A DNA stretch of 64,000 nucleotides, taken from assembly GCA_034670305.1 (NCBI GenBank), contig JAXMNT010000030.1, positions 29,026 to 93,025 on the forward strand, read 5' to 3'. Positions 4,150 to 52,581 of this stretch are shown piece after piece. Made by a program: the position numbers and the translations under genes. The notes under the pieces were generated by a model. It was not told the DNA's origin and ran no database searches. It saw only the letters and a program-made list of their open reading frames with translations. The first letter of the stretch is position 1. Every line of letters starts with the position of its first letter. The stretch comes from Deltaproteobacteria bacterium (lineage in GTDB: Bacteria > Myxococcota_A > Polyangia > Polyangiales > Houyiibacteriaceae).

Positions 4150-5364
4150 TTACGAAGCCGCGTTCAGCCAGTAGGTTTTCATCTGGCCTTTGCCTTTGAC
4201 TTCGATGACGCCGCGTTCTTCGATCTCGAAGCCATCGAGTTCAGCCAGCGCCAGTGCGGTCTTCTCGCTCACGTGCACGCGGCCGGGCGATCCGTGCGAC
4301 TCCATGCGCGACGCGGTATTCACCGCGTCGCCCCAGAGATCGTAGGCGAACTTGGACTTGCCGATCACGCCGGCCACCACCGGTCCAGTGTGCAGTCCGA
4401 TGCGGATCTGAAGCGCTTCGCCGGAGTCCTCGGCGTACTGGGCCAGCGCATCCCGCATCTCGATCGCGAGGCGCGCCATCTCAGCCGCGTGGTCGTCGGT
4501 CGGTTCGGGGATGCCGCCGCCGCACATGTACGCGTCGCCGATGGTCTTGATCTTCTCGAGCCCGCGCGCGGTGACCAGATCGTCGAACATGGCGAACACT
4601 TCGTCGAGCATCACCACGAGCTCTGTGGCCGATTTCTTCTGCGCGAGCCCGGTGAACCCCACGAGGTCCGCGAACAGAATCGTCGCTTCGGTGAACGAGT
4701 CCGCGACGACCCCGGGGGATTCGCGAAGTCGGTCGACGATCGGCTCCGGCAGGATCCCGAAGAGCAGCCGCTCGGTCCGTTCGGCCGACTCCGAGAGCGC
4801 GTCCTCGGCGATCTCCGCGCCCTTGCGGTAGAAGACGATGAACACCCAGAGGATCGCGAATGAAGAGATCGCGTTGCCCAGCCCGAGGTAGAGGGTGACC
4901 GTCTCCGGAAGGGGATACGCCGGGGTGTGGTCCGCGTAGTGATGGAGAACGAAGAGCGCCGCGAATGTACCCACCGGCACCATCGCGAACAGTGCCCCGA
5001 TGCGGGTGCTGACCCGCGGCAGCATCAGACTCAGCGGCGCGACCGTCAGCAGGTAGAACTGAAACCCCACGCCCCAGCCGCAGTAGTACACACCGAGCGA
5101 TTGGTGAATGACCACCTCGCCGACCGAGAGCGCGAGGCCGAACGCCAGTTGTCCGCGCTTCATGATCGAGCGCGCGAAGACGAAGGTGAGGATGCTCAGC
5201 ACGTTGAGCGCGGCCATCGGCCAGATCTGCAGCAGGCTGAAGGTCACCAGCAAGGACGCATGGATCACGATCGCGACGCCGGTGATCGTCTCGTAGGGCA
5301 ACTGGGCGCGGCGCGTCTCGCGCGCTGCCCCGATGAGCTCCCGAACCGTCTCTGGCTGCCCCAC
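4150..5364 (-). CDS. Membrane-bound class III adenylate/guanylate cyclase
   Basis: About 6 TM helices, then ILFADLVGFT, KIKTIGDAYM, YDLWGDAVNTASRMES; the K/D specificity residues suggest ATP. Confidence 0.93.
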   Translation of the reverse strand: MGQPETVRELIGAARETRRAQLPYETITGVAIVIHASLLVTFSLLQIWPMAALNVLSILTFVFARSIMKRGQLAFGLALSVGEVVIHQSLGVYYCGWGVGFQFYLLTVAPLSLMLPRVSTRIGALFAMVPVGTFAALFVLHHYADHTPAYPLPETVTLYLGLGNAISSFAILWVFIVFYRKGAEIAEDALSESAERTERLLFGILPEPIVDRLRESPGVVADSFTEATILFADLVGFTGLAQKKSATELVVMLDEVFAMFDDLVTARGLEKIKTIGDAYMCGGGIPEPTDDHAAEMARLAIEMRDALAQYAEDSGEALQIRIGLHTGPVVAGVIGKSKFAYDLWGDAVNTASRMESHGSPGRVHVSEKTALALAELDGFEIEERGVIEVKGKGQMKTYWLNAAS

Positions 5365-5454
5365 GCGCGCAGACTATCTTAGTCCTGTGCCGCCGCGCGA
5401 ACCCGCGCTTCACCGCGCCTGGTTCCATGGGGAAGAACTCCGGCCATCCGAGGT

Positions 5455-8716: not shown

Positions 8717-10567
8717 GTGAACCGAAACACCGCCAAAAAACTGGCCCACCTTCTCGCGGATGAGTCCCAGCGCGCGCTCGAGCAGATGCGCATCTCGGGT
8801 CATCCCAAACCCCACTTCGTCTCGCAGCTGCTCCGTCACGCCGAGGAACGGCGCATGGAGGCCCGCTTCGGCGCGCTGATGCAAGAGGACCACACGACGC
8901 GCCGCAGCGGGCTCGTCGATGTGCGCGTCGGTTCGTACCGGCGCGATCAGGTGCGCAACGGCGGGGTCAAAGACAACAGCACCGACCTCGAGTCGTTCGA
9001 CATGTTGCAGCTGCCGCTCGGCGGCCCGGGCGATGGCATCCGCCATGCGCTCTGGAAGCTGACCGAAGCCAAGTACCGAGAAGCCTGCGACGACTTCCTG
9101 CACAAACGCGCGGTCGAGCTGAACTACCTGGACGAACACCGGGCACTGCCGGCGTTCGAGCGGGTGAAACCGGTCGTCGATCTCGACATCCAGACCCCGC
9201 CGCCCTTCGACGTCGATGCGTGGCGCGACTTCGTCCTGCGCGGCAGCAAGTCGATTCAACGCTTCCCGCTCGTGCGCGATGGCCACCTGCGGGTGCAGGC
9301 GACGAACATGGTGCGGATCTTCGCCAGCACCGAGGGCACGATGATCGCGCGCAGCCAGCCGCTGCGCACGGTGGAGCTGCACTTGTGGGTGCTCTCGCCC
9401 GACGGGTGGGCGGTGCCACAGACCCGCACCTGGTTCACCACCAACGACGACGAACTGCCGGACCTCGCGGAAGTCCGGCACACGATGAACGTGCTCTACT
9501 CGCGTTCCGTCGCGCTCGCGTCGGCGCCCATGATCCGCAGCTTCGCCGGGCCGGTGTTGCTCGAGCCGCTGCCGGCCGGGCTGATGGTGCACGAAGCGCT
9601 CGGCCACCGCCTCGAAGGCGACCGACTCCTGGCCGGCCAAGAGGGACAGACGTTCCGCGACCGACTCGGTTCCGAAGTGTTGCCGGTCGGCATCACGGTG
9701 CGCGACGACCCGCGCATGACGACGTTCGAGGGGCGCTCGCTGGTGGGTGCATTCGACTACGACGACGAAGGCGTGGCGAGCCGCGAAGCGAAGCTCATCG
9801 ACGATGGCAAGTTGGCCGGGTTTCTGACCTCGCGCAGCCCCATCGGCAAAAAGCACAAGAGCAACGGACACGCGCGCAGCGCCCACCACGCGCGGCCGAT
9901 GAGCCGCATGGGCGTCACGGTGGTCGAAGCGACCTCCGACGCGATGACCGAAGCACAGCTCTTCCAAGCGTTCCTCGAAGAGATCCGCGAACAGGAGGTC
10001 CCGTTCGGCATCCGCATCGTCGAGGCCTTCGGCGGCGAGACCTCCACCGAAGCCTACGACTTCCAAGCGTTCCTCGGAGAGATCGAAGTCGCCACCCGCG
10101 TCTACCCGGATGGGCGCGAAGAGCTCGTGCGCGGAGTCGACTTCGTAGGCACGCCGCTCAACGCGATGCGCGGCATCGTGGCGGCGGGTTCCAACCGGGT
10201 GGTCGACAACGCCTGGTGTGGCGCGGAGAGCGGCTACGTGCCTGTGAGCACGATCTGCCCGGCGCTCCTGGTCGACGAACTCGAGCTTCAGTCGAAGCCG
10301 ATGCGGCCGATGACGCAGTACTCGTACCCGGTGCCTTGGCAGTCCAACGCGGAGCCGAAGAAGAAGCCGAAGAAGCCGAAGAAGCCCGGCACGCCGAAGA
10401 AGCCCCGCAAGCCGAAGAAGCCCCGTGGGCCGAAGCTCGCGACTGAATTGTCGCGGAGGGGTGGGGCAGTCGAGCGAAGCGAGCGGTCGACCCCCGCAGG
10501 CATCCGACGAGGAGGCCGAGCCCAGCCCCGCAGCGACGCTCCCAGTTCAACGGGGAAGTCCAAGTGA
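8717..10567 (+). CDS. TldD/PmbA family metalloprotease with K/P-rich C-terminal tail
   Basis: HEALGH zinc motif, YDDEGV, SNGHAR, C-terminal WCGAESGYVPVS; start moved to GTG 8717. Confidence 0.88.
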   Translation: MNRNTAKKLAHLLADESQRALEQMRISGHPKPHFVSQLLRHAEERRMEARFGALMQEDHTTRRSGLVDVRVGSYRRDQVRNGGVKDNSTDLESFDMLQLPLGGPGDGIRHALWKLTEAKYREACDDFLHKRAVELNYLDEHRALPAFERVKPVVDLDIQTPPPFDVDAWRDFVLRGSKSIQRFPLVRDGHLRVQATNMVRIFASTEGTMIARSQPLRTVELHLWVLSPDGWAVPQTRTWFTTNDDELPDLAEVRHTMNVLYSRSVALASAPMIRSFAGPVLLEPLPAGLMVHEALGHRLEGDRLLAGQEGQTFRDRLGSEVLPVGITVRDDPRMTTFEGRSLVGAFDYDDEGVASREAKLIDDGKLAGFLTSRSPIGKKHKSNGHARSAHHARPMSRMGVTVVEATSDAMTEAQLFQAFLEEIREQEVPFGIRIVEAFGGETSTEAYDFQAFLGEIEVATRVYPDGREELVRGVDFVGTPLNAMRGIVAAGSNRVVDNAWCGAESGYVPVSTICPALLVDELELQSKPMRPMTQYSYPVPWQSNAEPKKKPKKPKKPGTPKKPRKPKKPRGPKLATELSRRGGAVERSERSTPAGIRRGGRAQPRSDAPSSTGKSK

Positions 10568-11289
10568 TCGTCGTCACCGGATGCCGCCGCTCCGGCACGT
10601 CGTTGTGGATGCAGATCCTCTCCGAAGCCGGTCTGCCGATCGTGGGCGAAGCGTTCGCCCCGGAGCTCGAACCGCTCGCCGACGCGAACCCCAATGGGTT
10701 CTACGAGTCCGAACACCGCTACGGGGTGGTGGGCGAAGCGGACGCGCTTCGCGGACAGGTCTTGAAGATGTTCGCGCCCGGCCTGCTCGAAGTCGACGAG
10801 GACGAGCTCGAACGGGTTCTGTTCTGTCTCCGGCCCTGGCGCGCCCACGTCGCCTCGACGACCGCGTTCGAAGTGCTCGAGGCCGAAGCGCTCGGGGAAG
10901 AGATCCCGCAGTCGATGCCGCCCGCGCTCGAGTGGTGGTTCGAGAACTACTGCTTGCTCGGGGACTTCGCCGAGCGGGACTACCCGATGATGATGGTCGC
11001 CTACGACCTGGTCCTCGAGAAGCCGCTGGAGACGATCCAGCGGGCGCTGGTGTTCCTCGACCAGGACGAAGGGCTGGCCGAACACGCCGTGCAGGTCGTC
11101 GACCCATCGCTGCGCCACGCCGATGCCTCGACCGAGGTCGAAGTGGACCTCCCGGACGAGGTGCTGGCCACCTTCGATGCGTTCTACGACCGGGTCCGCA
11201 ACCGCGACGCGTTCGACGACGCGTTCGTCGACCGACTCAGCGCGACCCACGAAGCGGTGATGCCGCTCATCGAACCCCACCTCGAATAA
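10564..11289 (+). CDS. Sulfotransferase-like P-loop protein
   Basis: N-terminal VTGCRRSGTSLWMQIL and NPNGFYE; 4-nt overlap with the TldD gene. Confidence 0.7.
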   Translation: MIVVTGCRRSGTSLWMQILSEAGLPIVGEAFAPELEPLADANPNGFYESEHRYGVVGEADALRGQVLKMFAPGLLEVDEDELERVLFCLRPWRAHVASTTAFEVLEAEALGEEIPQSMPPALEWWFENYCLLGDFAERDYPMMMVAYDLVLEKPLETIQRALVFLDQDEGLAEHAVQVVDPSLRHADASTEVEVDLPDEVLATFDAFYDRVRNRDAFDDAFVDRLSATHEAVMPLIEPHLE

Positions 11290-11574
11290 AAGTAGCGGCC
11301 GCAGTTCGTTGCGAGGTCCCGCGAAGCGGGCCAGTCCTCGAACAGCACCAACGAGTCAGGCGGCTCCACCCGTGCACCTGCGCAGCGCAGGCCGAGCAAC
11401 TGGTGCACTCCCCAAGTGCACACAGAGCGCCTCAAGGAGCGCCTGGGCGCAGCCGCCAATCGCATCAAGAGGGTTCTCCAAGGACCCATCGAATGGCGGC
11501 GAGCACGTGCAGGCAGCGACGGGCGCGAATTGGGGCCGCCAGTCCCGCGAAGCGGGCCACGCCCGTAGTGGCAA

Positions 11575-11616
11575 TTAAAAAGCGCGGCCGCAACGAGGGG
11601 GGTCGTTGCGGCCGCG
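11575..11616 (-). terminator. Rho-independent terminator
   Basis: CGCGGCCGCAACGA-CCCCCC-TCGTTGCGGCCGCG followed by CTTTTTAA on the minus strand. Confidence 0.85.
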
Positions 11617-11684
11617 AGATTGGGAAATGGCGAGCTGAGCGTAGGGGGGGGGAACGACGCTCGGGCGCATCGCCACTTCACCCA
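11575..11684 (-). ncRNA. Putative sigma54-dependent small RNA with C-rich loops (Pxr-like architecture)
   Basis: Upstream -24/-12 motif, a long stem-loop with a C9-containing loop, then a perfect 14-bp hairpin with a C6 loop and a U-run; no credible ORF. Confidence 0.7.
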
Positions 11685-11691
11685 ACTACCT

Positions 11692-11708
11692 ATGCGATAA
11701 TGGTGCCA
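11692..11708 (-). promoter_or_regulatory. Putative sigma54 promoter of the sRNA
   Basis: TGGCACCATTATCGCAT: GG-N10-GC spacing with the TGGCAC core. Confidence 0.7.
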
Positions 11709-11774
11709 ACCGAAAAGGCGAATGATCTTCACGGATGGGATCCGCTCTGGTTTCAGACGCGCAATGGGGCCGTT

Positions 11775-12875
11775 TCAAGAATGGAATTTTCGTCTCATTT
11801 TCCTACCGAATGCAAAGAGCAGCAGTCCGCCCAGCGCGAACGCCGCCGGCCTGGCCCACTCCCGGATCCGGCCGGCATGCAGCCAGCTCTGACGGGGCGG
11901 CAGGGTCACGACTTCGGGTAGGTGCAGGGGGGCGTCCAGCGGCGCGCGCATCGGAGCCAACAAGCCCTCCATCGAAGGAGCGGTGATCGTGATGGCGTTC
12001 ATGACCTCCCGCTCGACCCCCCGGACATAGACCATCTCGCGGCCCGACTTGGTGCGGCGCGACCGGCGGACCTCGCCTTCCTCGCGGCGCACCCCGAAGC
12101 CCAGCTGCTCTTCCCAGCGACTGCCGCTCGGCGCGTTCATGACGCCGCCGAGACGCTCCACGAAGAGGGTGCTCGAGCCGCCGCCGTCCAGGTTGAGGGC
12201 ACGGTGGGCGCCGAGCTCCGCGAGGGTGCGCGCCAGCTCGTACATCGTGAGCCCGACGCTGTGCTCTTGCCGCCCGTCGGTGACGAGCAACCACAAGGTG
12301 TTGCCGGTGCGGGAGACGGCCGCGGCCGTTCGCGGCTGCCGCATGTTGGCCGTGGCGACCGGGTCGAGCGACTCGGTATCGACCTCGCCGTCGCGGACCA
12401 GCATCGGGCGGCCAGAGGTCCCTTGCAGGATGCGGTCGGGTACGGGATCGAGCACTTCTTCGGGTGGACTGATGAAGGCGCGGCCATTGCGACCGAACCC
12501 CAGAAAGCCGAAGACGTAGTTGTCGGCGGTGTCCTCCCACGGCTCGTCGTCTGTGACGTGCAGTCCGGCTGGCTGTGCGAAGGTCTCCCAGAACCCGCCG
12601 TTCACCGCGACCGCGGCCCCCTGGGTCCGCGCGTGGTCGCCCACGGTCTGCCAACGTTCGTCTCGGCCACTCACCCGCACGTCCACGCCGTCGTGGCGAA
12701 GGTCGATCTCCAGGACGTGGATGGTGCAGGGCGCCGTGGTGACGCGGCGTAGGTACCGGATGCCCGGGTTCGGCTCCGACCAGACGTCGTAGAACTCGAC
12801 CGGGGGTCGTTCGCGCTCCTGGGCAGCGGCAGGCAGGGCGGACACAAGACAGAGAACGAGGATGAAGAGGCGCAC
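11775..12875 (-). CDS. Phosphodiester glycosidase (NAGPA-like) family secreted protein with C-terminal anchor
   Basis: Signal peptide; AVNGGFW, PRTAAA, VTDGR, ALNLDGGGSSTL motifs; C-terminal TM and basic tail. Confidence 0.88.
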   Translation of the reverse strand: MRLFILVLCLVSALPAAAQERERPPVEFYDVWSEPNPGIRYLRRVTTAPCTIHVLEIDLRHDGVDVRVSGRDERWQTVGDHARTQGAAVAVNGGFWETFAQPAGLHVTDDEPWEDTADNYVFGFLGFGRNGRAFISPPEEVLDPVPDRILQGTSGRPMLVRDGEVDTESLDPVATANMRQPRTAAAVSRTGNTLWLLVTDGRQEHSVGLTMYELARTLAELGAHRALNLDGGGSSTLFVERLGGVMNAPSGSRWEEQLGFGVRREEGEVRRSRRTKSGREMVYVRGVEREVMNAITITAPSMEGLLAPMRAPLDAPLHLPEVVTLPPRQSWLHAGRIREWARPAAFALGGLLLFAFGRKMRRKFHS

Positions 12876-12987
12876 GCAGGGTTGCAGTGCAAGGGCGGAT
12901 CCCGGCGAAAACGTCAATGATTGCGGGATTCTGCGGCCGTCGTTCGCGTGTGTTCGGAGACACCGCCGCGTCTGCGCAGCCACGATC

Positions 12988-13078
12988 CGAAGAAGAAGAA
13001 GAAGCCGAAGCCGAAGCCGAAGCCGATCCCGAAGCCGAAGCCGAGGCCGAAGGCGATCCCGAAGCCGAAGCCGACCCC
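12988..13078. repeat. (GAA)n/(GCCGAA)n low-complexity tract in a divergent intergenic region
   Basis: Directly visible; similar tracts near 21627-21650 and 22785-22822. Confidence 0.8.
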
Positions 13079-13117
13079 GTCCCGTTGCTCGCTCTCTACC
13101 ATGTGGTAGGGAGCGGG

Positions 13118-14029
13118 ATGGCCATCTCCACCCGTCACGTCCGCCACCAGTGGCCGGTGCTCGGCGCGCTCGCCCGCTCCGCGGTGTTGGCCGTTCGCAA
13201 CCGCAACGTGTCGGGGGCGCCGCCCAAGACGCCGGGGCCTTGGTTTCGCGCCAGCCTGCCACCGCGGGATCCGCAGCTCATCCGCGACTACATCCGGCAC
13301 GTGGGCGGCGATCCTTCGCTCCACAAACGGACGGTGCCGGCGCACCTCTTTCCGCAGTGGACGTTCCCCCTCCAAGCCCAGGCGCTCGAAGGGCTGCCTT
13401 ACCCGATGCAGAAGGTGCTCAACGGCGGTTGCCTGCTCGAGCAGCACACGCCGCTGCCGCAAAACGAACGGCTCGAGGTCGCCACCCGGCTCGACCACGT
13501 GGACGACGACGGCCGGCGCGCGGTGCTCCGGTTTCTCGCCACGACGGGCACCAAGAGCTGCCCCGACGCGTTGACCGCCCACCTCTACGCCATCGTGCCG
13601 CTTGCGAAGAAGTCGGACGACGGACAGCCGCGCGCGAAGAAGGTCCCCGTCCGGGTCCCAGACGACGCGCGCGAGGTCGGCTGGTGGAAACTCCGCGCAG
13701 ACGCCGGGCTCGACTTCGCGAAGCTGACCGGCGACTTCAACCCCGTCCACTGGGTGCCGCCCTACGCGCGCGCGTTCGGATTCCGGAGCTGCATCTTGCA
13801 TGGCTTCTCCACGTTTGCGCGCACCTGGGAAGGGCTGCGTACCTCGCTCCGCCAAGAGCCCACCAAACTCGACGTGCGGTTCACCAAACCGTTGCTGCTG
13901 CCGGCGCGCGTCGGCCTCTACCTCTCCCCGGACGACGCCGAGCCGTCCGCGCCTCCCGCACACGCCGGACGCGTCTTCGTCGGAGACGCCCCAAGCGGCC
14001 CGGCCTACCTCGAAGGAACCTACGCATGA
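13118..14029 (+). CDS. MaoC-like double hot-dog (R)-hydratase/dehydratase (HtdX-like)
   Basis: FAKLTGDFNPVH, ILHG and VRFTKPLLLP motifs; start ATG 13118. Confidence 0.85.
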   Translation: MAISTRHVRHQWPVLGALARSAVLAVRNRNVSGAPPKTPGPWFRASLPPRDPQLIRDYIRHVGGDPSLHKRTVPAHLFPQWTFPLQAQALEGLPYPMQKVLNGGCLLEQHTPLPQNERLEVATRLDHVDDDGRRAVLRFLATTGTKSCPDALTAHLYAIVPLAKKSDDGQPRAKKVPVRVPDDAREVGWWKLRADAGLDFAKLTGDFNPVHWVPPYARAFGFRSCILHGFSTFARTWEGLRTSLRQEPTKLDVRFTKPLLLPARVGLYLSPDDAEPSAPPAHAGRVFVGDAPSGPAYLEGTYA

Positions 14030-27644: not shown

Positions 27645-27702
27645 GCCGGTGAGCGCGCTTGCGGAGCCCACACCCGGCGATCGTGGTTAGGCTCCGGGCA
27701 CG

Positions 27703-28137
27703 ATGACCTACCGGCTGCTCGACCACACCGCAGACATCGCGATCGAGATCGATGCGGCCGACGAAGCCGGACTCTTCGATGCGCTCGCCAAAGGACTGCT
27801 GCACGTGCTCACCGATGTGCCGGGGTGCGCGGAGGGCACATCGCACATGGACGCGACCGTCGAAGGCCACGATCTGGGCGCGCTGCTCGTCGCGTTTGGG
27901 AACGAAGTGCTCTTCCTCTTCGAGGTGGAGACGTTTCTCTGGAGCGGCGCCGAACTTCTCTCGATCGAAGACGGCGAAGCGCGGATTCGGATCTTCGGCG
28001 AGCGCTTCGATCCGGAACGCCATCCGATCGCCAGGCCATTCAAGGCCGTGACACACCACGACGCCGTGGTTACTCGTTTGCCCGCCGAGGGAGAAGCCCA
28101 GCCACGCTGGACGGCAGAGATCATCGTCGATCTCTGA
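27703..28137 (+). CDS. Archease
   Basis: DHTADI, KAVTHH and terminal IVDL motifs; directly upstream of rtcB. Confidence 0.93.
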   Translation: MTYRLLDHTADIAIEIDAADEAGLFDALAKGLLHVLTDVPGCAEGTSHMDATVEGHDLGALLVAFGNEVLFLFEVETFLWSGAELLSIEDGEARIRIFGERFDPERHPIARPFKAVTHHDAVVTRLPAEGEAQPRWTAEIIVDL

Positions 28138-28240
28138 GGTGCTTCCTCGGCCCACGCCTTCGGGCGAGCATTCAAGTTGGACGAACCGCACTGCCGCCTC
28201 CCGGCACGCAGTGGTCGTCGCAGAACAGGGCAAGCGTTCG

Positions 28241-29791
28241 ATGAGTCGTCAGAAACGAAGGAAGAAGCAGAAGCAGGAGAAGCGCGACCTGGAGAAGAAG
28301 CAGGTCAAGGCGCGGGTGCCCTACGCCCCGAAGCCCTACGCGAGTCCGGTGCCGCTCGAGCCGTTTCCTTTTCCGGGAGACGACCCGGAAAGAGACTGTG
28401 TCCGTTGGCGCATCCCGCAGCGCGGCGCGATGAATGTGCCCGGCGTCGTGTTTGCAGACAGCACGCTCTTGCCCGACGTGCTCGCGGACAAGTCGCTCGA
28501 GCAGGTCGCGAACGTCGCCACCTTGCCCGGCATCGTTGGCGCGTCGTTCGCCATGCCCGACATCCACATGGGCTACGGCTTTCCCATCGGCGGGGTCGCC
28601 GCGTTCGACGCCACCCAGGGCGGGGTCGTGAGCCCGGGTGGCGTGGGCTACGACATCAACTGCGGCGTCCGCTTTCTCGCTTCCGACATGCATCTGGATC
28701 GGATCGGCAAACGCATCGAGAAACTCACCGACACCCTCTTCGAAGCGATCCCCGCCGGGGTCGGATCACGGCGCAAAGAGATCTCGCTCAGCGGCGGCGA
28801 ACTCAGCGAACTGCTGATGGACGGGATGAAGTGGGCGAAGCGCAAAGGGCTCGCCAACAACCAGGACGAAGCCCACACCGAAGACCGCGGCAAGATGGCC
28901 GCCGATCTCAAGTACGTCTCGAACCGGGCGAAGCAGCGCGGCGGCCCCCAGCTCGGCACCCTCGGTAGCGGCAACCACTTCGCAGAGATCGGCGTGGTCG
29001 ACGAGGTGTTCGACGAGGAGATCGCGGAGGCGTTCGGGCTCGAGCTCGGACAGATCACGTTGATGATCCATTCGGGTTCCCGCGGACTCGGACACCAGGT
29101 CTGCACCGACTTCCTCAAAGACATGTTCAAGGCGGTGGAGAAGTACGACATCCCGCTCGCCGACAAGCAGCTCTGCTGCGCGCCCATCCACAGCGACGAA
29201 GGCGAGCGGTACCTGAGTGCGATGGCGGCGGCGGCGAACTTCGCCTTCATGAACCGCCTCGTGATGGCGCACTGGGCACGCCAGGTCTTCGACGACATGT
29301 TCGGCGCGGAGCTGCGCACCGTCTACGACGTCTGCCACAACATCGCGAAGCGCGAGCAGCACGTGGTCGATGGGGTCTCGAAGGAGCTCGTCGTACACCG
29401 CAAAGGCGCGACCCGCGCGCTGCCGCCCCAACATCCGGACCTGCCCGAGCGCTACCAGAAGTTCGGTCAGCCGGTGGTGATCCCCGGCGACATGGGGCGC
29501 TACTCCTTCGTGATGGCCGGCGCCGCGCACTCGTCCGAGACGATGCACAGCGCGTGTCACGGCGCCGGCCGGTTGCTCTCGCGGTCGGAAGCCAAACGCC
29601 GGTTCACCGGCCGGCAGTCCGAAGTGCTCTCCAAACACGGCGTCTTCGTACGCGGCGCCTCCAAAGCGACCGTGGTCGAGGAGATGCCCGAAGCCTACAA
29701 GGACGTCGCCGACGTGGTCGGCGTGGTGGAGCGTGGCTTCATGGCCAACCCAGTGGTGCGCCTGCGCCCGCTCGGCGTCGTCAAAGGCTGA
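28241..29791 (+). CDS. rtcB: RNA ligase RtcB (archaeal/eukaryotic-like clade)
   Basis: MPDIHMGYGFPIGG, GYDINCG, GSGNHF, HSGSRG, HNIA, HRKGAT and HGAGR motifs. Confidence 0.95.
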   Translation: MSRQKRRKKQKQEKRDLEKKQVKARVPYAPKPYASPVPLEPFPFPGDDPERDCVRWRIPQRGAMNVPGVVFADSTLLPDVLADKSLEQVANVATLPGIVGASFAMPDIHMGYGFPIGGVAAFDATQGGVVSPGGVGYDINCGVRFLASDMHLDRIGKRIEKLTDTLFEAIPAGVGSRRKEISLSGGELSELLMDGMKWAKRKGLANNQDEAHTEDRGKMAADLKYVSNRAKQRGGPQLGTLGSGNHFAEIGVVDEVFDEEIAEAFGLELGQITLMIHSGSRGLGHQVCTDFLKDMFKAVEKYDIPLADKQLCCAPIHSDEGERYLSAMAAAANFAFMNRLVMAHWARQVFDDMFGAELRTVYDVCHNIAKREQHVVDGVSKELVVHRKGATRALPPQHPDLPERYQKFGQPVVIPGDMGRYSFVMAGAAHSSETMHSACHGAGRLLSRSEAKRRFTGRQSEVLSKHGVFVRGASKATVVEEMPEAYKDVADVVGVVERGFMANPVVRLRPLGVVKG

Positions 29792-33535: not shown

Positions 33536-36085
33536 ATGCCCACCCCTGAACCCCACGCACACCCCTTGGAGCGGTGCCTTCTGCGTCTGGCCGAAGTCAC
33601 CACGCGGTGGCCGAAGGTCGTTCTGTCGATTGGACTGGTCGGGCTCGTGGCCGGCGGCGTGGCCAGCACCCGACTCGAGCTGGACGCGCGGCTGGAAGCG
33701 CTCTTGCCCACCGACACCCGCGCGGCGCACGCGATCGAGACCTACCGGACCCGGGTCTCCGCCGGTGCGCCGCTGCAGGTGCTGGTCGAAGGACCGCGGG
33801 CCGAAGTCGTCAGCGACGCGGTGCGGGATGCGCTCGCGGAGTGGCCCGACGTGGCGTGGGCACTCAACCGGCGCGAGACCTCGTCGCTCTACGAACGTCG
33901 CCTCCTGCTCCTCGGGGAATCCCGGATCGAGCAGCTCGCGGACGACCTCGAACAGAACGTCGAGCACGCGGAGTGTGAGTCGATGCCGGGGTGCGTGGCG
34001 TTCGAGGAGCCACCCGAGCTGCCCACCCGCGAAGCGCTCACCGACGAAGCCCGGTCTCTGCCGCTCCTGCGACGCCTGTCGCCGTTCGTCGGTTCATCGG
34101 AGGGAACGGAGGGAACGGAGCGGTCGACGTCCGCCGAGCTCGATCCGCGGCTGTGCAACGACTCGGTGCCGCGGGTGTGTTTGGTGCAGGCCGGACTGGA
34201 AGGCGACCCCGGCGACCTCGCGTTCGCGGCCGAGGTCGGCACGCGCGTCGACGCACTCGCCGAGCGATGGGGGGGCGGCGAGACCCGCATCGAACTCGCT
34301 GGCCGCTACCGCACGCTTCCCCAGATCCGCGCCATCGCCGCCCGTGATCTTCGCCGAACCGGCGCGCTCGGCGCCCTGCTCGTCCTCGCGATCGTGGCGT
34401 TCGCATTTCGCCGCCGAGGCCGGACCGGAGGGCTCGGTGGATGGCGCGCGCTCTTCCTGGTCGGGACGCCGCTCGCCATCGGGATGGGCGCCACGCTCTG
34501 CCTGTTGGCGTGGCTCCATCCGGTGCTGAACCTGATCGGCGCGTTCACGTTCGCCATCTTGGGCGGCGTCGGCATCGACTTCGGGCTGCACCTCGCGTCC
34601 CGACTGCGCGGCGCGCTGGCAGAAGGACTCGCGGTGGGTCCGGCGGTGCAGCGAACGCTCACCGACATCGGCCGCTCGCTCTTGGTCGCAGCGTTCACCA
34701 CGAGTCTCGCGTTCGGCGCGCTCGCGGTCGCGGACTTTCGGGGGTTCGCGGAGATGGGGGTGTTGGCCGGGGCGGGGGTGCTCTTGTCCGCGGTCTCCTT
34801 TCTCATCTTCTTCGCACCGGCGGCGGTCCTCGTCGCCCAGCCTTCGACGGCGACCACGAACGCGCAGGTCCCGCGGTCCACGCCAGCCCTACCGACGGCG
34901 AGCCGGTCCGTCGCGTGGCGCGTCGTCCTCGCCGGGTGCGTGCTGGCCGTGGTCGGTGGGTGGGTCGGACGCGGGGTCTCGTTCGAGTACGACTTCCGGC
35001 GGCTGCGACCGACGGGGGTGAGCAACTCGATCTCCGCGGACGGCACGCAGTCGGGCACGCGCGGCACCCCGGTGGTCGTGCTCGCGGACTCGGCCGAATC
35101 GCTGGCGACACTCGACCTCGAGTCGTCCGGGCCACGCTCGGCATTCGGCGTCGCACCAGACGAGGTGGCGGTGCTCGCTCCGACCGATCTCGGCGCGCTG
35201 CTCGACCCGAGCGAGGCCACGTTGGCGGCGCTCGGCCGGATGGGCCGGGCGCTCGATCGAGCGCGCGACCATGTCGATGCCGAAGTGTTCTCCGAGCTGC
35301 GCCCCCTGGCGTCCGTCGGCTCGCTCGAACCGGAAACCTTGCCCACGTGGCTGCGGGCCGCTTGGCTCGAACGCGACGGGACCATGGGGCGCATGGCGCT
35401 GATCTACGTGCCGCTCCGCGGCTCCGATGCACGGGCGATGGAACGGCTGCATGGACAGATCGAGACCTGGCGCGATGCGCACCCGGACCTCGTGTTCGCG
35501 TGTCCAGAAGCCACCCTTGGAGAGATCGTGCCGGGGCTGCGACGCGACGCGCCGCGCATGATGGGGCTGGCGCTCCTCGGACTGTTGCTCGCCACCATGG
35601 GCATCGGACGGAGTCTGCGGCGCACGCTGCTGGTGGTCGCGCCGGTGCTCTTGACGATGGCGGTGTCCGCCGGCGTGCTCGCGTGGCTCGACGTTCGACT
35701 CAACCTCTACGACGTCTTGGTGCTGCCCGTGGCGTTCGGCGTATTGATCGACGGCGCGGTCTACCTCGCATGGGCCGAGGACGACGCGGCGCGACGACAC
35801 GCCGCGGGGGCGGTGTGCACGTCGACGCTCACCACGCTGAGTGCGTTCGGCGCGCTCGCGGTCGCCGACAACCCGGGCATCGCCTCGATCGCACACGTGG
35901 CGATGGTGGTGTTCACGGTGGGATTGTTCGCCAACCTGCTTTGGTTGCCGCACCTGCTCCGACTCGTGAACCGAGCCGCCCACGATCAGGGCGCAGCAGT
36001 GTCCCCAGACACCGACACCTGTGGTGCGACACTCACGCATCCGGACGCGGCATCTCCAAAACCCACGGGTGCGATGCGCGTTTGA
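33536..36085 (+). CDS. MMPL/RND family lipid transporter
   Basis: Duplicated TM + periplasmic halves; GVGIDFGLH and GVLIDGAVY motifs. Confidence 0.88.
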   Translation: MPTPEPHAHPLERCLLRLAEVTTRWPKVVLSIGLVGLVAGGVASTRLELDARLEALLPTDTRAAHAIETYRTRVSAGAPLQVLVEGPRAEVVSDAVRDALAEWPDVAWALNRRETSSLYERRLLLLGESRIEQLADDLEQNVEHAECESMPGCVAFEEPPELPTREALTDEARSLPLLRRLSPFVGSSEGTEGTERSTSAELDPRLCNDSVPRVCLVQAGLEGDPGDLAFAAEVGTRVDALAERWGGGETRIELAGRYRTLPQIRAIAARDLRRTGALGALLVLAIVAFAFRRRGRTGGLGGWRALFLVGTPLAIGMGATLCLLAWLHPVLNLIGAFTFAILGGVGIDFGLHLASRLRGALAEGLAVGPAVQRTLTDIGRSLLVAAFTTSLAFGALAVADFRGFAEMGVLAGAGVLLSAVSFLIFFAPAAVLVAQPSTATTNAQVPRSTPALPTASRSVAWRVVLAGCVLAVVGGWVGRGVSFEYDFRRLRPTGVSNSISADGTQSGTRGTPVVVLADSAESLATLDLESSGPRSAFGVAPDEVAVLAPTDLGALLDPSEATLAALGRMGRALDRARDHVDAEVFSELRPLASVGSLEPETLPTWLRAAWLERDGTMGRMALIYVPLRGSDARAMERLHGQIETWRDAHPDLVFACPEATLGEIVPGLRRDAPRMMGLALLGLLLATMGIGRSLRRTLLVVAPVLLTMAVSAGVLAWLDVRLNLYDVLVLPVAFGVLIDGAVYLAWAEDDAARRHAAGAVCTSTLTTLSAFGALAVADNPGIASIAHVAMVVFTVGLFANLLWLPHLLRLVNRAAHDQGAAVSPDTDTCGATLTHPDAASPKPTGAMRV

Positions 36086-36086
36086 T

Positions 36087-36102
36087 TGGCACCGAAGCTG
36101 CA
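36087..36102 (+). promoter_or_regulatory. Putative sigma54 promoter
   Basis: TGGCACCGAAGCTGCA, GG-N10-GC; predicted +1 near 36113, next to ATG 36115. Confidence 0.55.
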
Positions 36103-36114
36103 ATGCCATTCGGC

Positions 36115-37545
36115 ATGACACACGCCCACTCGGACCTCCGCCGCATCGGACTCTTGAACGACTTCGTACGCGTTGGACACGCCAACGGCTCGTCGTTCGC
36201 CTCTCAGTTCCTCTACCGTGAACTGGAAGCGCGTGGCCGCGAAGTGACGGTCGTCGGTCCGCGCGACCCACGGGCCGCACCGCACGAGTTGCCGCACCGC
36301 CACCTGCTCCTCGAGTCGATGCCGCTGCGCATGCACCCCGGCGTGCATCTCGCGATGCCCACCTTCGGTGGACTGCGCCGCGTGGCGCGGGCGCGTTTCG
36401 ACCTCGTGCTCGGCCAGACCAGCAACGCGCTGATGGACGTTGGCGTCTGGCTGCGCGCAGCGCACGGCGTACCGCTGGTGATGGTCAACACCGTGCACCT
36501 TCCGAGCGTCTACAACGCGCTTCTCTCCGAACGCCTCGACCGCATCGACGCCGTCCACGCGGCGTTCGCCGAACACTTGGTGCCGTTCGCGGAACGCCAG
36601 ACCGTGGACGCCTACAACCGTGGGGACGGTCTGGTGGTGCTCAGCCCCGGACTCAAACGGTACTGGCGCGAGCGGGGGGTTCGGGTGCCGGTGCACGTGA
36701 TCGGTCGCGCGGTCGAACCGAAGATCTTCGACGCGGTGCCGGGTGCCGATCCGTTCCTGACCCTGTCGCACGTCAGCGACACGTTCCGGTCGAAGGTTCG
36801 AACGAGAGGCTCGAGGTCCCTGGTCGTCTGCCGCCTGGTGCGCGAGAAGGGCATCGCGCGCCTGCTCCGCATCTTCGCGCGGCGCATCGCACCTGCCCGG
36901 CCGGAGGCGACGCTCACCCTGGTGGGCGATGGACCCGACCGGGAGAGCTTCGAGTCTCTGGCGCGCGCACTCGGCATCGCCGAGCGGGTTTGTTTCGCGG
37001 GTGCACGGCCACTGCACGAGATGCCGACCTGGTACGCGCACGCCGATCTCTTCCTCTACACATCGTTGAGCGAGACCTACGGCCAGGTCGTCACCGAAGC
37101 CCTCTGGTGCGGGCTGCCGGTGGTCGCGTTCGCGGATGGCATGGGCGTCAGTGGACAGATCGCGGACGGTGTCGACGGCGCGCTCGTCGAGCCCGGTCCC
37201 GATGCCGACCAGGCGGACCATGCGTTCGCCCATGCGGCGCTGCGGTTGCTCTCCAACCGAGACCTGCGACGCCGCTGGGCGCAGTCGGCCCGAACGAACG
37301 CGCGGAGGCGGGCCGACCCACAGGCATGCGTCTGCCGATACCTGGAGACCTTCGAGGTGGCGCGGCGCCATCGGTTGTCCGGTGACGCGTCGCCCAGCCT
37401 GAGCCGCGAGCTCGGTCTGCTCGGTCGGTGGGCGGGCGTTCACACCCTCGCGGCCACCCTCGGGTTGATGCGCAAACCGGATCGCACGGTGTCGATTCCG
37501 AGCGCCGCCACCTGGGCGCTCGACGGCGCGGAGCAAGCGGCGTGA
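36115..37545 (+). CDS. GT4 family glycosyltransferase (diacylglycerol glycosyltransferase-like)
   Basis: NGSS, CRLVREKG, VGDGP and SETYGQVVTEALWCGLPVV motifs; alternative start ATG 36103. Confidence 0.9.
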   Translation: MTHAHSDLRRIGLLNDFVRVGHANGSSFASQFLYRELEARGREVTVVGPRDPRAAPHELPHRHLLLESMPLRMHPGVHLAMPTFGGLRRVARARFDLVLGQTSNALMDVGVWLRAAHGVPLVMVNTVHLPSVYNALLSERLDRIDAVHAAFAEHLVPFAERQTVDAYNRGDGLVVLSPGLKRYWRERGVRVPVHVIGRAVEPKIFDAVPGADPFLTLSHVSDTFRSKVRTRGSRSLVVCRLVREKGIARLLRIFARRIAPARPEATLTLVGDGPDRESFESLARALGIAERVCFAGARPLHEMPTWYAHADLFLYTSLSETYGQVVTEALWCGLPVVAFADGMGVSGQIADGVDGALVEPGPDADQADHAFAHAALRLLSNRDLRRRWAQSARTNARRRADPQACVCRYLETFEVARRHRLSGDASPSLSRELGLLGRWAGVHTLAATLGLMRKPDRTVSIPSAATWALDGAEQAA

Positions 37546-38735
37546 CCGTCGTGGCCTACTTCGTTCACGGCCGCGGCCGGGGCCACGCGGCGCGGGCGCG
37601 TTCGATCGTGCCGCACCTTCGCGCGAACGGGTTCGACGTCCGCGTCTTCGGTGGTGGGCGCGCGCAAGAGACGCTGGAGACGAGCCCGCGGTTCACCCCG
37701 GTGCGCACCGTGATGCCGGGTTCCCCGGTGCGGGTGGGCCGCGATCTGGCCGCGCGGCTGCCCCGCGACATTCGCCGACTCCGAGAACACGAAGCGCAGA
37801 TCGTGGTGACGGATGGAGACATGCCCTCCGCGCTGGCCGCCCATCTGGTCGGGATCCCCCTGGTCGCGGTTGGGCACGGGTTGCTCTTTCGACACTGCAA
37901 GGTGCCGGCGTCGCTCCCTCGGCTCCCGGTGCTGCGCGAAGCGCTCAATGCCTGGAGTGGATCCATCGGGGCACGGCGCAAGGTGGTCGTTCACTTTGCG
38001 CCGCTGGTGCCCCGAGGGGCACGGATCCGGGTCGCGCGGCCCGATGGGCTGGACGCGCTGACGGAGGGTCCGGTCCAGGACGACGGCTTCGTGCTCGCTT
38101 ACTTCCGCGACAACGACGGCCACGACATTCTCGAGCGCGTGGTGCGCAGCGGCCGACGGGTCCTGTGTTTCGGACAGCCGCAGGGTTTCGGACAGCCGCA
38201 GGGTTTCGGACAGCCGCAGGGTTTGGGACAGCCGCAGGGTTTCGGACAGCAGCAGGGTTTCGGACAGCAGGGTTTCGGACAGCCGCAGGGTTTCGGACAG
38301 CAGCAGGGTTTCGGAGAACCCGTACGGTCACGAGGGGTCGAGTACCACGCGCCGGAGGTCGACGCGTTCCGTCAGGCGCTGCGTCGGTGTTCGGCGGTCG
38401 TGGGGAGCGCGGGCAGCAACTTGATCAGCGAATGCCTGGCCGCACGCAAACCGCTGCTCGCCGTGCACGCGCCGCGCGACGTGGAGCAGCGACTCAACGC
38501 CAACATGGTGGAGGACGCGGGGATCGGCATTGGATGCAACCGCGAGGACGTGACGGATGCGGTCATTGCACAACTGCTGTCGGGCGGCCCCCCACGGACA
38601 GACGCCCGGGATGCGATGATGGACCTCGCCCCAGCCTCCGAAGCGGTCCGGGGCGCGATCGATGCCGCGCTCATCGAAGCGATGCACCGCCGGGCGAGGT
38701 TTCGGGCCATGCTTCCTCTCCGGGGCCGCGGGTGA
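37542..38735 (+). CDS. GT-B glycosyltransferase (MJ1255/GT28-like) with internal FGQPQG repeats
   Basis: HGRGRGHAAR, VTDGD, AGSNLISE and EQRLNA motifs; GTGA overlap with the upstream GT. Confidence 0.85.
   Translation: MTVVAYFVHGRGRGHAARARSIVPHLRANGFDVRVFGGGRAQETLETSPRFTPVRTVMPGSPVRVGRDLAARLPRDIRRLREHEAQIVVTDGDMPSALAAHLVGIPLVAVGHGLLFRHCKVPASLPRLPVLREALNAWSGSIGARRKVVVHFAPLVPRGARIRVARPDGLDALTEGPVQDDGFVLAYFRDNDGHDILERVVRSGRRVLCFGQPQGFGQPQGFGQPQGLGQPQGFGQQQGFGQQGFGQPQGFGQQQGFGEPVRSRGVEYHAPEVDAFRQALRRCSAVVGSAGSNLISECLAARKPLLAVHAPRDVEQRLNANMVEDAGIGIGCNREDVTDAVIAQLLSGGPPRTDARDAMMDLAPASEAVRGAIDAALIEAMHRRARFRAMLPLRGRG
38169..38321 (+). repeat. In-frame 18-bp VNTR encoding (FGQPQG) x about 8
   Basis: TTCGGACAGCCGCAGGGT units with variants. 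Confidence 0.92.
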
Positions 38736-38845
38736 ATGCACTCCGAGTGCGGGAACCGACCTGAGCAGCCGGAGGTGGTGGGGATTGATCGAGGGAACCA
38801 AGCGACAGTTACCAATCGAACCATCTGCTGTTAGATCGGAGATGC

Positions 38846-39481
38846 GTGAAGCTCCTGATCGTCGATGATGTGAAGCCCACTGGGCAGGCGTTTGCGCGAC
38901 TGGCTCGAGGCCTCGGCTGGTCGGTCTCCTGCGTGACTCGGGTCAAGACCGCGCGGCGGGAGCGCGGATTCGATGCGGCAATTGTGGACGTGAACGTGCA
39001 GGGTGAATCGGGCCTCGAACTGCTCGCACACCTGCGGTCCAAAGAGCCACGCGCGGCCTACCTCGTGCTGACGGGGGATCCGCGCGTTTCGATCGCCGCA
39101 CACGCGGCGCAACTCGGCGCGACCTACCTGCGCAAGCCGATCGGCGCACGAACCCTCAGGTTGTGGTTGATGGAAGTCGAGGCCGGCGGTGGGCGCGGCG
39201 TGCAGGAACGCGCGCTCGGTCTCGACGAGATGGAGACGTGGCAGAAACAGCACTTCGAGCAGTTGTTGTTGGAGTTCGGCGCCACGCACGGACTCTCCGA
39301 GCGACACATCGACATCATCCGGCTCACCGCACATGGATTGAACCGCAGCGAGATCGCGGAGAAGCTCGACATCACGTTGGCGACCTACCAGAAACACGTA
39401 GGCCGGTTGCAGAAACGCTCCCACACCAAGCTCCAGCGCATCGTTTCCGAGCTGACCTCGCCTCATCTTCTCGACGAGTGA
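38846..39481 (+). CDS. Response regulator, REC + LuxR-like HTH
   Basis: LLIVDD, AIVDVN, LTG and KP receiver motifs; C-terminal LSERH...GLNRSEIAEKLDIT. Confidence 0.88.
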   Translation: MKLLIVDDVKPTGQAFARLARGLGWSVSCVTRVKTARRERGFDAAIVDVNVQGESGLELLAHLRSKEPRAAYLVLTGDPRVSIAAHAAQLGATYLRKPIGARTLRLWLMEVEAGGGRGVQERALGLDEMETWQKQHFEQLLLEFGATHGLSERHIDIIRLTAHGLNRSEIAEKLDITLATYQKHVGRLQKRSHTKLQRIVSELTSPHLLDE

Positions 39482-39496
39482 CCGACCGGCGGGTGA

Positions 39497-40579
39497 TCAG
39501 CCGCCGGCGGGAAACACGATGCAGATCTCGGTGCCGCGCGGGTGCACCGGAAGGACCTCGATCGAGCCGCCGGCGCCCAACACGATGCGGCGGCACAACG
39601 TGAGCCCGGAGCCGGTGCCCGTCGGGCGCGTGGTGTAGCCGAGCCCGAACACCTCTTCGCGCAACGCCGCCGGAATGCCCGGACCGTCGTCCAACACCCG
39701 TACCGCGACGGATTCGTCGCTCCGCTTGGCCACCACCACCTGAATCCGTGAGCCACCGGCCTCGGCAATCGCGTGGCGGGCGTTGAGGATCAAGTTGACG
39801 AGCACCTGCGCCAGCTCCGATGGGCGCAACGGAACATCGGGGGTGGACGTGGAGCGGACCTTGAGCGCCGCGACCCCGCGCACATGCCGCCCAAGGATCT
39901 GCTCCACCGAATGCGCCACCGAGACCGGATCGCAACGGCCTTTCAGGCGGGAGCGGTCGGCCAAGCTCGTCATGAAACGGGTCAGCTGTTCCACGCCCTC
40001 CATGATGCCGCCCAAGTGTTCGACGACATCCACCTGGGTGGCCTGCGGCGCCAGCTTCTCCTGGAGCGCTTGGGTGTCGAGAAGCAAGAGCTGCAGCACA
40101 TTGCTCAGTTCGTGGCTGATCTCTGCGCGCACTTGATCCATCGCATCGCGCGGGAGGTCTTGGAGCAACCGCGCCTCCAACACGCGCGTCTCGGCGCGCA
40201 GGCGGTGAACCTGGTGCGCCGAATCGATCGCGTCGAAGAGCAGGTCGGCGTCGAACGGTTTGGCGAAGTACCGGTGGACCGCGCCACGGTTGATCGCGTC
40301 CACCGACGTGGTCAGGTCGGCGTAGGCGGTGAGGATCATTCGGAGTGTGTCCGGCTGGGTCTCTCGAAACCGCTCGCACAGCTCCACCCCGGTCATGCCG
40401 GGCATGCGTTGGTCCGCGATCAGTACCGACACGGGCCGCGACTGGGCGATGCGAAGTGCTTCTTCACCGGAGGCGGCTGTCTTGAGGTTGGGCAGCCGCC
40501 CGTCGAAGACGTATCGAAAGGTGGTCCGGTTGGCCTCCTCGTCGTCGACGTACAGCACGATGGCGGGGCGCACGTTCAC
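39497..40579 (-). CDS. Hybrid REC-histidine kinase
   Basis: VDDE, DQRMPG; H-box SHELSN; NLILNA, DDGPG and GSGL boxes. Confidence 0.9.
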   Translation of the reverse strand: MNVRPAIVLYVDDEEANRTTFRYVFDGRLPNLKTAASGEEALRIAQSRPVSVLIADQRMPGMTGVELCERFRETQPDTLRMILTAYADLTTSVDAINRGAVHRYFAKPFDADLLFDAIDSAHQVHRLRAETRVLEARLLQDLPRDAMDQVRAEISHELSNVLQLLLLDTQALQEKLAPQATQVDVVEHLGGIMEGVEQLTRFMTSLADRSRLKGRCDPVSVAHSVEQILGRHVRGVAALKVRSTSTPDVPLRPSELAQVLVNLILNARHAIAEAGGSRIQVVVAKRSDESVAVRVLDDGPGIPAALREEVFGLGYTTRPTGTGSGLTLCRRIVLGAGGSIEVLPVHPRGTEICIVFPAGG

Positions 40580-47412: not shown

Positions 47413-47684
47413 GCCGAAAGTCTACCAGGGGGGATTGGGGCAAATCGTCGGGGTAGACTTTGTTCTACCGATCCATGGTCAGAAGTTGGCACATCCCCAT
47501 CCTGGGTACTCGCCGAGGCGTTCGGGAAATCCCAATGTTCACTTGGGGTTACAGGAAAACGATGGGCTGCTGTCAGAGACCTCGCGGAGAGTGCCTCCGG
47601 AGGTGTTCCAGCGGCCCGAGGGGCGAAGTGGCTCAAGCATCCGTAATCTTTGTCATTTTTGGCACTGAACGCTAGTCTTTTTCG

Positions 47685-49652: not shown

Positions 49653-49697
49653 CGTCTGCAGGCACCGAGCACGTCTCAGCACGCCTGGGGGCTTCGC

Positions 49698-50990: not shown

Positions 50991-51028
50991 TCTCGGAATC
51001 TCGTGGTGGCGGAATTGTCCCGAGTGAC

Positions 51029-51044
51029 TGCACTTCTCATGCCA
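51029..51044 (-). promoter_or_regulatory. Putative sigma54 promoter of the REC-EAL gene
   Basis: TGGCATGAGAAGTGCA, GG-N10-GC, about 40 nt upstream of ATG 50990. Confidence 0.6.
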
Positions 51045-51128
51045 CTTAGAATCGTGGGGAATCGGGACGGCGAGTGGTCGATTTGACCACTCGTGCCCGG
51101 TTTCGCCCCCGATCTGGCCCGCTCCTGC

Positions 51129-52460: not shown

Positions 52461-52512
52461 CGACCCACTGTGGTCCGTCGTGCCATCGGTCGTCCAGCAT
52501 CGCGCACGGGAT

Positions 52513-52565
52513 CGGCACTGCAGCTCCCGAAGCCAGCACTGCGCCTCCCACAGCCGGCACTGCGC
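52513..52565. repeat. Three GCACTGC-containing units at 21-bp period in a divergent promoter region
   Basis: Units start at 52513, 52534 and 52555. Confidence 0.65.
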
Positions 52566-52581
52566 GATACACTCCGCCACC

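Follow-up and report, generated by a model that had tools for sequence, protein, structure and literature searches.

Several bacterial small RNAs (sRNAs), including Qrr, GlmY/GlmZ and NrsZ, are sigma-54-dependent, and the Myxococcota are noted for their many sigma-54 activators. To our knowledge, the RNA regulators of this phylum are nearly undescribed beyond Myxococcus and its close relatives. Among sRNAs known for their loops, RepG uses a C/U-rich terminator loop as its seed.

The developmental sRNA Pxr of Myxococcus is described as sigma-54-driven, and in the accessible text of PMC5568312 all pxr homologues sit between pxrR/nla19 and a NADH dehydrogenase gene. According to the accessible part of PMC5684412, Pxr has three stem-loops, with SL1, SL2 and the 8-bp core of SL3 conserved, and pxr is confined to the suborder Cystobacterineae. 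[quoted passage not shown] In Actinobacteria, the 6C sRNA (B11, or ncRv13660c) takes its name from cytosines that are conserved in the stem-loops; panD and dnaB are repressed when loops L2 and L3, which are C-rich, pair with their G-rich ribosome-binding sites, and neither Hfq nor ProQ is needed, as stated in the available portion of PMC6486639. RepG of Helicobacter pylori targets a homopolymeric G-repeat in an mRNA leader, as given in the available portion of PMC8295292.

In our literature search we met neither a sigma-54-driven sRNA with C-rich loops nor any sRNA from Sandaracinaceae-like lineages. The locus analysed here combines a sigma-54-type promoter motif with a compact candidate RNA that exposes two runs of cytosines, and we compare it below with the systems just described.

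Promoter motif, predicted RNA and genomic setting

The candidate lies in a non-coding gap of 485 bp (11290-11774) between two converging genes, one sulfotransferase-like and the other of the NAGPA family (Table 1). The window, by which we mean the whole 64-kb stretch of DNA that was analysed, has a G+C content of 67.8%. GC3 periodicity is present up to ~11290 and absent in 11300-11770; the frames of 72 and 89 amino acids found in the gap have no Pfam match, and no tRNA or tmRNA was found. The stop codon of the NAGPA-family gene is located 66 nt before the -24 element of the candidate promoter, and no gene follows the candidate sRNA on the minus strand. The 11708 promoter thus has no protein-coding gene to serve, because it points into the 3' end of the converging gene and the gap is non-coding.

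Table 1. Coordinates of the candidate sRNA, its predicted signals and the neighbouring genes in the window
Feature	Position	Strand	Basis
TldD/PmbA-like peptidase	to 10567	+	Pfam, GC3 periodicity
Sulfotransferase-like protein, converging	10564..11289	+	PF13469, E 0.00099, 19.9 bits against a cut-off of 27: weak, below the curated cut-off
Structured non-coding DNA	11290..11576	.	fold z, repeats
U5 tract, 1 nt after SL2, predicted 3' end	11577..11581	-	sequence
SL2, perfect 14-bp terminator hairpin, CCCCCC loop	11583..11616	-	fold, terminator scan
C6 run in SL2 loop	11602-11597	-	sequence
Single-stranded linker AAUCU, 5 nt, between SL1 and SL2	11617..11621	-	fold
SL1, interrupted stem of 2+10+2+6 bp, ~14-nt loop CGUUCCCCCCCCCU	11622..11682	-	fold
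C9 run in SL1 loop	11652-11644	-	sequence
Predicted transcription start, G	11682	-	usual sigma-54 geometry, 12 nt downstream of the -12 C (11694)
Sigma-54-type -24/-12 promoter motif TGGCAC-cattA-TCGCAT	11692..11708	-	sequence, motif match to TGGCACNNNNNTTGCW
NAGPA-family protein (phosphodiester glycosidase)	11775..12875	-	PF09992, E 5e-34
MaoC-like dehydratase	12887-14029	+	Pfam, GC3 periodicity
Short-chain dehydrogenase	to 15459	+	Pfam, GC3 periodicity

The NAGPA-family protein has 935 homologues at E<=0.001, and its C-terminus agrees with the family alignment. The best non-self homologue is 69% identical, and those with named sources come from Myxococcota MAGs, Sandaracinaceae and Sandaracinus amylolyticus at ~50% identity. 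Judged from this one protein, the lineage would belong to the Myxococcota and would be Sandaracinaceae-like rather than a member of the Cystobacterineae. An NtrC-type activator is encoded at 51132-52607 (PF00158, E 2.7e-69), and because of this gene the organism evidently uses sigma-54. It is the only such activator found in the window, by a search that scanned 42 of 50 candidate frames, four of the other eight being covered by another Pfam scan. It stands 40 kb from the candidate sRNA, and no activator gene is adjacent to the latter.

On the minus strand, positions 11708-11692 read TGGCACCATTATCGCAT. Within it, TGGCAC-N5-TCGCA (11708-11693) has its GG at 11707-11706 and its GC at 11695-11694, which gives the correct GG-N10-GC spacing, and the consensus TGGCACNNNNNTTGCW is matched with a single mismatch, TCGC for TTGC in the -12 element. 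A spacer of 9 nt separates TGGCACCATTATCGCAT from SL1, and the predicted +1 (G11682) coincides with the first paired base of that stem-loop. Allowing at most one mismatch, TGGCACNNNNNTTGCW has three matches on both strands of the 64-kb window against 1.16 expected from shuffles; since at least three matches are reached in 17 of 100 shuffles, the window-wide count alone is not significant. The same search yields four matches in 116,227 bases from 11 other Myxococcota loci.

Two of the three matches in the window fall in the ~13% of it that lacks codon periodicity, and these two sites, at 11708 and 36087, are each just upstream of a plausible transcription unit. At the second, a GT4 glycosyltransferase gene has its ATG (36115) 2 nt after the predicted start. 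The two candidate promoters have the longer word TTGGCACC in common, apart from which no word of at least 10 bases is common to their regions. Among the motif matches in the window and the 11 loci, only the 11708 site has two C-runs of at least five within 170 nt downstream. By an after-the-fact estimate, which assumes about one motif site per 15-30 kb of double-stranded DNA and a few dozen suitable positions, a motif would place +1 at the foot of SL1 on the right strand by chance in ~1 case in 1000. No sigma-70-like site was detected in 10500-13500, and the 300 bp examined for an upstream activator dyad contain no perfect 6-nt dyad.

The candidate RNA would run on the minus strand from 11682 to ~11577. 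Its fold, computed for 11682-11578, has an energy of -56.4 kcal/mol (z -8.50), and none of 200 shuffles is as good. SL1 is 61 nt long and includes the stem AAGUGGCGA/UCGCCAUUU, which has one G-U pair, and the stem GAGCGU/ACGCUC; the C9 run is within its loop, and on its own it has -26.8 kcal/mol (z -5.16). SL2 has G-C pairs at 11 of its 14 stem positions, reaches -29.3 kcal/mol alone (z -6.87) and is followed on the minus strand by CTTTTTAA. In the partition function each C of C9 and C6 is unpaired with a probability of at least 0.87, except the last C of C9 at 0.54, and the C6 of the SL2 loop is unpaired in the ensemble with p 1.0. Neither the fold nor the exposure of the C-runs changes in a read-through context that begins at 11860, inside the upstream gene. 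The antisense strand also folds well (z -5.02), so the strand was assigned from the U-tract and the promoter motif and not from the fold.

These features agree throughout with the sequence features that a first-pass annotation of this DNA had described. It had placed a -24/-12 motif at 11708-11692 on the minus strand with +1 near 11682, and the motif is present there with correct spacing. It had then drawn a long SL1 stem with a C9 loop, followed by a 14-bp terminator with a C6 loop and a U-run, all of which we recover, and had put the RNA at ~108 nt, close to the 105-106 nt predicted here from motif geometry and terminator.

Both the cytosine runs and the terminator are rare in their surroundings. 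C9 is the longest homopolymer in the 64-kb window and the only C or G run longer than 7; runs of C or G of at least six number 19, and two of them are the SL1 and SL2 loops, 41 nt apart and each centred in its hairpin loop. T-runs of at least five are rare too, runs of A or T of this length numbering nine in the same 64 kb, both strands counted. A terminator scan of 1-60000, which stopped short of 60001-64000, returned 26 terminator-like sites against ~27.6 expected (11, 8 and 7 against 9.9, 9.1 and 8.6), which is the chance level. SL2 is the only strong canonical terminator in these 60 kb, and no other site there joins a long, perfect stem to an uninterrupted T5. Because terminators occur at chance level and only a single one is strong, a terminator of the SL2 type is not a generic gene end in this DNA.

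The rest of the gap (11290-11576) is likewise structured, the fold z value being -4.63 for the plus strand and -2.13 for the minus strand. An exact direct repeat of 18 nt, GTCCCGCGAAGCGGGCCA, occurs in it at 11316-11333 and 11542-11559; allowing three mismatches, this word is matched twice where 0.51 matches are expected, and two matches are also reached by 6 of 100 shuffles. A degenerate copy of an SL2 arm lies beside the stop codon of the converging sulfotransferase-like gene, and a hairpin GTGCAC-N7-GTGCAC occupies 11403-11421, whose loop reads UCCCCAA in plus-strand RNA and UUGGGGA in minus-strand RNA.

Search for relatives and targets

The Rfam 15 collection, which should include models for Pxr and 6C, has no match at gathering score in the whole window (4227 families). 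Matches at E<=10 in 11300-11900 are limited to mir-4672 (E 0.92) and mir-1249 (E 8), which we regard as chance. For a search beyond the window, contigs were retrieved with an alignment of 25 NAGPA homologues, taken from 120 listed of the 935. The best 80 loci were kept; they were found by a generic peptide pattern, are at most 47% identical in the NAGPA protein and do not include the relatives of 57-69% identity. With the element and the entire gap as queries, blastn against the window and these 80 loci (at most 47% identity) returned only self and chance matches, and a blastn search against plasmids returned no match.

A covariance model built from the single sequence and run on the window with filters off produced 52 matches at E<=10 and no second copy. 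Below E 0.01 it recovers nothing beyond the element and SL2's palindromic antisense, and the next best unrelated match (16.8 bits, E 0.043) is within a coding frame. Applied to the 11 of the 80 loci whose titles name Myxococcota or Deltaproteobacteria, the model finds nothing below E 0.23 (best score 14.7 bits). Synteny has already broken down in the best of the fetched loci, which comes from a Sandaracinaceae MAG: a different, co-oriented gene follows the NAGPA homologue there. With 47% identity in the neighbouring protein and synteny gone even in this locus, the failure to find a relative means little. By the searches made, the candidate sRNA appears to be a singleton that has no detectable homology to any described family.

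To look for possible targets within the 64 kb, we scanned for duplexes between loop 1 and 30-nt windows that contain 10 or more G's, setting the antisense self-hit aside. The scan gave no outlier, the top non-self duplexes ranging from -27.8 to -23.9 kcal/mol and most of them lying in coding regions. Two weak leads may be recorded, a G-rich stretch at ~33559 on the minus strand, near the start of a Wzx-like flippase gene, and, within an MMPL gene, a G7 hairpin loop at ~34263-34281. The ribosome-binding site of the converging gene, GGGGAAG, could form ~6 bp with UUCCCC, which we judged too weak to claim as a target.

Candidate sRNA and rival explanations

We give an even chance to the reading in which the locus is a free-standing ~105-nt sRNA gene that is transcribed by sigma-54 RNA polymerase under an activator and acts through its two C-runs on G-rich mRNA. 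The gap between the converging genes is non-coding and holds the motif at correct spacing, the fold with its exposed C-runs and the terminator; from these we infer transcription from the 11708 promoter, dependence on sigma-54, action in trans and G-rich targets. Under this reading, sigma-54 RNA polymerase would bind the -24/-12 motif at 11708-11693 and an enhancer-binding protein (EBP) would open the promoter on a signal. Transcription would start at the foot of SL1 and stop at the intrinsic terminator formed by SL2 and U5, and the RNA would expose two runs of cytosines, the C9 of SL1 and the C6 of the terminator hairpin, each in a loop. The C-runs could pair with single-stranded G-rich stretches of mRNA, either ribosome-binding sites or G-rich hairpin loops, and such pairing would block translation or alter mRNA stability. 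A chaperone would perhaps be unneeded, as in the actinobacterial 6C sRNA, because the contacts would mostly be G-C pairs. Taken as a whole, the element is a good but unproven candidate, plausible as an sRNA of known kinds, both sigma-54-dependent and C-rich-loop.

The main competitor is a reading that we hold to be possible but on the unlikely side, in which the NAGPA-family gene simply has these hairpins as its 3' UTR and intrinsic terminator, and the sigma-54 motif has arisen by chance or is unused. With comparable reserve, SL2 and U5 would then end the NAGPA mRNA and SL1 would shield it from 3' exonucleases. The geometry suits such a role as well as it does the sRNA reading: the hairpins are on the NAGPA strand, SL1 starts 92 nt past the stop codon (11775), SL2 with its T5 begins 159 nt and ends 198 nt past it, which is within reach, and the fold is the same when transcription is taken to read through from 11860. 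It is also consistent with the three motif matches reached window-wide by 17 of 100 shuffles, and with the finding of neither an adjacent activator nor an upstream binding site. However, with canonical terminators at chance level in the window, a 14-bp/U5 terminator combined with a 20-bp hairpin would be unusual for a single gene, and the 3' UTR reading leaves unexplained why the two longest nearby C-runs are placed exactly in the loops and why a rare motif sets +1 on the first paired base of SL1. The 3' UTR and sRNA readings are not exclusive, and a mixed form is possible, in which an sRNA embedded in the 3' UTR is made both from its own promoter and by processing. Should the element be a terminator and no more, there would be no notable loss.

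The other explanations appear less probable. It is improbable that the element acts in cis or as an antisense RNA rather than in trans; equally improbable are its two specific forms, control of the sulfotransferase-like gene by convergent transcription through a complementary long structured 3' region, and service as a leader to the 72-codon frame (11574-11356). In its favour, the other ~285 bp of the gap are structured, the plus strand more strongly (z -4.63), the gap and the terminator region have short repeats in common, and the minus-strand hairpin at 11421-11403 carries a UUGGGGA loop complementary to the C-loops. Against a role of this kind, 11300-11770 has no coding periodicity and the frames of 72 and 89 amino acids are without a Pfam match, a strong terminator separates the promoter from the 72-codon frame, and no plus-strand terminator or promoter was found. 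We think it quite improbable that the element serves as a protein-binding (sponge) RNA or acts at the DNA level, whether by being a repeat or a recombination site or by forming a G-rich structure on the plus strand. Homopolymeric C loops could form a protein-binding platform, but we know of no candidate protein that binds such loops. The plus strand has G6, G3, G9 and G3 tracts within ~70 nt, but the stems would probably out-compete a long-looped quadruplex, and a dispersed repeat is at odds with the single copy seen in the window and the fetched loci. Descent from Pxr is very improbable. The two RNAs are alike in size (the pxr coding region is 108 nt in the accessible text of PMC5568312), and both have a predicted or known sigma-54 promoter in the same phylum. 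The candidate, however, matches no Rfam family even at E<=10, has two stem-loops in both the MFE and the centroid structure and not three, and is flanked by the NAGPA-family and sulfotransferase-like genes instead of pxrR/nla19 or NADH dehydrogenase; pxr is reported only in Cystobacterineae, and the nearest named relatives here are Sandaracinaceae and Sandaracinus. The first-pass annotation had interpreted the element as a Pxr analogue or distant homologue, or else as a new sRNA family of another myxobacterial lineage. Of that interpretation, the sigma-54-type motif, the compact two-hairpin RNA, the C-only loops, the terminator and the non-coding gap stand, whereas kinship with Pxr is unsupported: the number of stem-loops, the neighbours and the lineage all differ, only the sigma-54 motif is shared, and the Rfam search brought up no family, be it at gathering score across the window or, chance miRNA matches aside, at E<=10 within 11300-11900. 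Pxr had also been credited with C-rich loops, a term that does not occur in the available portions of two Pxr papers searched for it, PMC5684412 included.

Returning to the sRNA reading, we consider a bolder version of it speculative and fairly unlikely, namely that the candidate is the first member of a class of sigma-54-controlled poly-C-loop sRNAs in non-Cystobacterineae Myxococcota, convergent with 6C, in which G-C kissing with G-rich ribosome-binding sites, independent of a chaperone and set in a high-G+C genome, would couple an EBP signal to translation. Such a class would link a signal, for example starvation or development, to translation, and its C9 seed, a homopolymer prone to slippage, could make the strength of regulation hypermutable.

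If the candidate is indeed an sRNA, it would provide a second type of sigma-54-controlled sRNA for the Myxococcota. It would also imply that a mechanism of the 6C style, with C-runs acting on G-rich ribosome-binding sites, arises independently in high-G+C bacteria. Further genes of this type could be sought with the compact pattern of the locus itself, in which a -24/-12 promoter precedes a hairpin and a terminator whose loops each carry a C-run.

Comparison with known systems

Pxr resembles the candidate in its phylum, in a length of ~105-108 nt, in a predicted sigma-54 promoter and in having multiple stem-loops. The surroundings differ, since pxr has the NtrC-like pxrR/nla19 immediately upstream and NADH dehydrogenase or pxrA beside it, and neither occurs at the candidate. 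With the other sigma-54 sRNAs the candidate would have in common an RNA gene with a -24/-12 promoter and an activator. In those systems, however, the activator is usually adjacent, as in the pairs pxrR-pxr and DVU0679-Dv_sRNA2, whereas here the only one in the 64 kb is 40 kb off, and there is no sequence similarity.

RepG offers a parallel for SL2, which is also a terminator with a C-run (C6) in its loop. The two RNAs belong to different phyla and are unrelated in sequence, and the variable repeat is in the target of RepG, whereas the candidate carries its long homopolymer (C9) in the sRNA itself; the scan with loop 1 identified no G-repeat target.

The 6C sRNA and the candidate have no detectable homology in sequence or structure (no Rfam match at E<=10), and they differ in host, a high-G+C Gram-positive bacterium as against a member of the Myxococcota. 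The candidate further differs in having a predicted sigma-54 promoter and in that one of its C-loops is the terminator loop. Both are short RNAs of a high-G+C organism with two hairpin loops of at least six cytosines, as far as 6C is described in the available text, and C9 and C6 are equally exposed here. We therefore regard 6C as the closest working analogue; the likeness would be one of architecture and not of family membership, and it would be convergent.

Structured sequence beside the candidate sRNA

The remaining 285 bp of the non-coding gap that holds the candidate sRNA (positions 11290-11576) are strongly structured, with a plus-strand fold z of -4.63, and contain an exact direct repeat and a hairpin (Table). 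On the minus strand the loop of this hairpin reads UUGGGGA, which complements the C-rich loops of the candidate. This segment could be a second RNA, or it could belong to the sulfotransferase-like gene as an extended 3' UTR. Another hairpin, within an MMPL-family gene, exposes G7 in its loop on the mRNA strand, the type of G-run that an sRNA with C-rich loops might kiss. It is part of a coding region, however, and the duplex scan of loop 1, the C9 loop of the candidate, against the window did not single it out.

Features in the window and, where indicated, in the Sandaracinaceae locus
Feature	Position	Strand	Details
Adenylate/guanylate cyclase gene	4153-5373	minus	adjoins the ankyrin-protein gene
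Ankyrin protein, ~1,090 aa	5383-8652		mostly ankyrin repeats; PF12796 matched over 10 stretches (E 9.5e-130)
Direct repeat, 18 nt, exact	11316-11333 and 11542-11559		within 11290-11576
Hairpin GTGCAC-N7-GTGCAC	11403-11421		within 11290-11576
Archease gene, then RtcB RNA ligase gene	27691-29788		PF01951; PF01139
Hairpin TCGCCG-AGCGATGGGGGGG-CGGCGA	34257-34287		within MMPL-family gene
Second intergenic sigma-54-type motif, TGGCACCGAAGCTGCA	36087-36117		predicted +1 ~36113
NtrC-type sigma-54 activator	51132-52607		receiver domain, PF00158, HTH
Sigma-54-like motif, TGGAACCATGCTTGCA	5740-5755 of L001		Sandaracinaceae MAG

Ankyrin and low-complexity coding sequences

The ankyrin protein is unusually large among bacterial proteins of this type. 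Low-complexity repeats occur within two coding frames, namely a MaoC-like protein with an acidic, E/A/D/P-rich N-terminus (12887-13100) and a glycosyltransferase bearing GFGQPQ repeats (37428-38735). The acidic N-terminus of the former matched Trypan_PARP by chance.

Sigma-54-related sites and genes

The NtrC-type activator is housed in a dense signalling cluster (38789-57676) together with several hybrid histidine kinases, receiver proteins, an EAL response regulator, a PilZ protein and an FHA/YscD-like protein. The second intergenic motif shares TTGGCACC with the predicted promoter of the candidate sRNA. Its predicted +1 falls 2 nt ahead of the ATG of a GT4 glycosyltransferase gene (36115-37545), and a sigma-54 transcript would therefore be nearly leaderless.

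In the best fetched locus with a NAGPA homologue (L001), the sigma-54-like motif lies roughly 190 nt 5' of the estimated start of that homologue; motif scans revealed no counterpart upstream of the NAGPA gene in the window. The rtc genes of E. coli are sigma-54-dependent (PMC5175333); the archease and RtcB genes of the window showed no strict sigma-54 motif in their upstream sequence.
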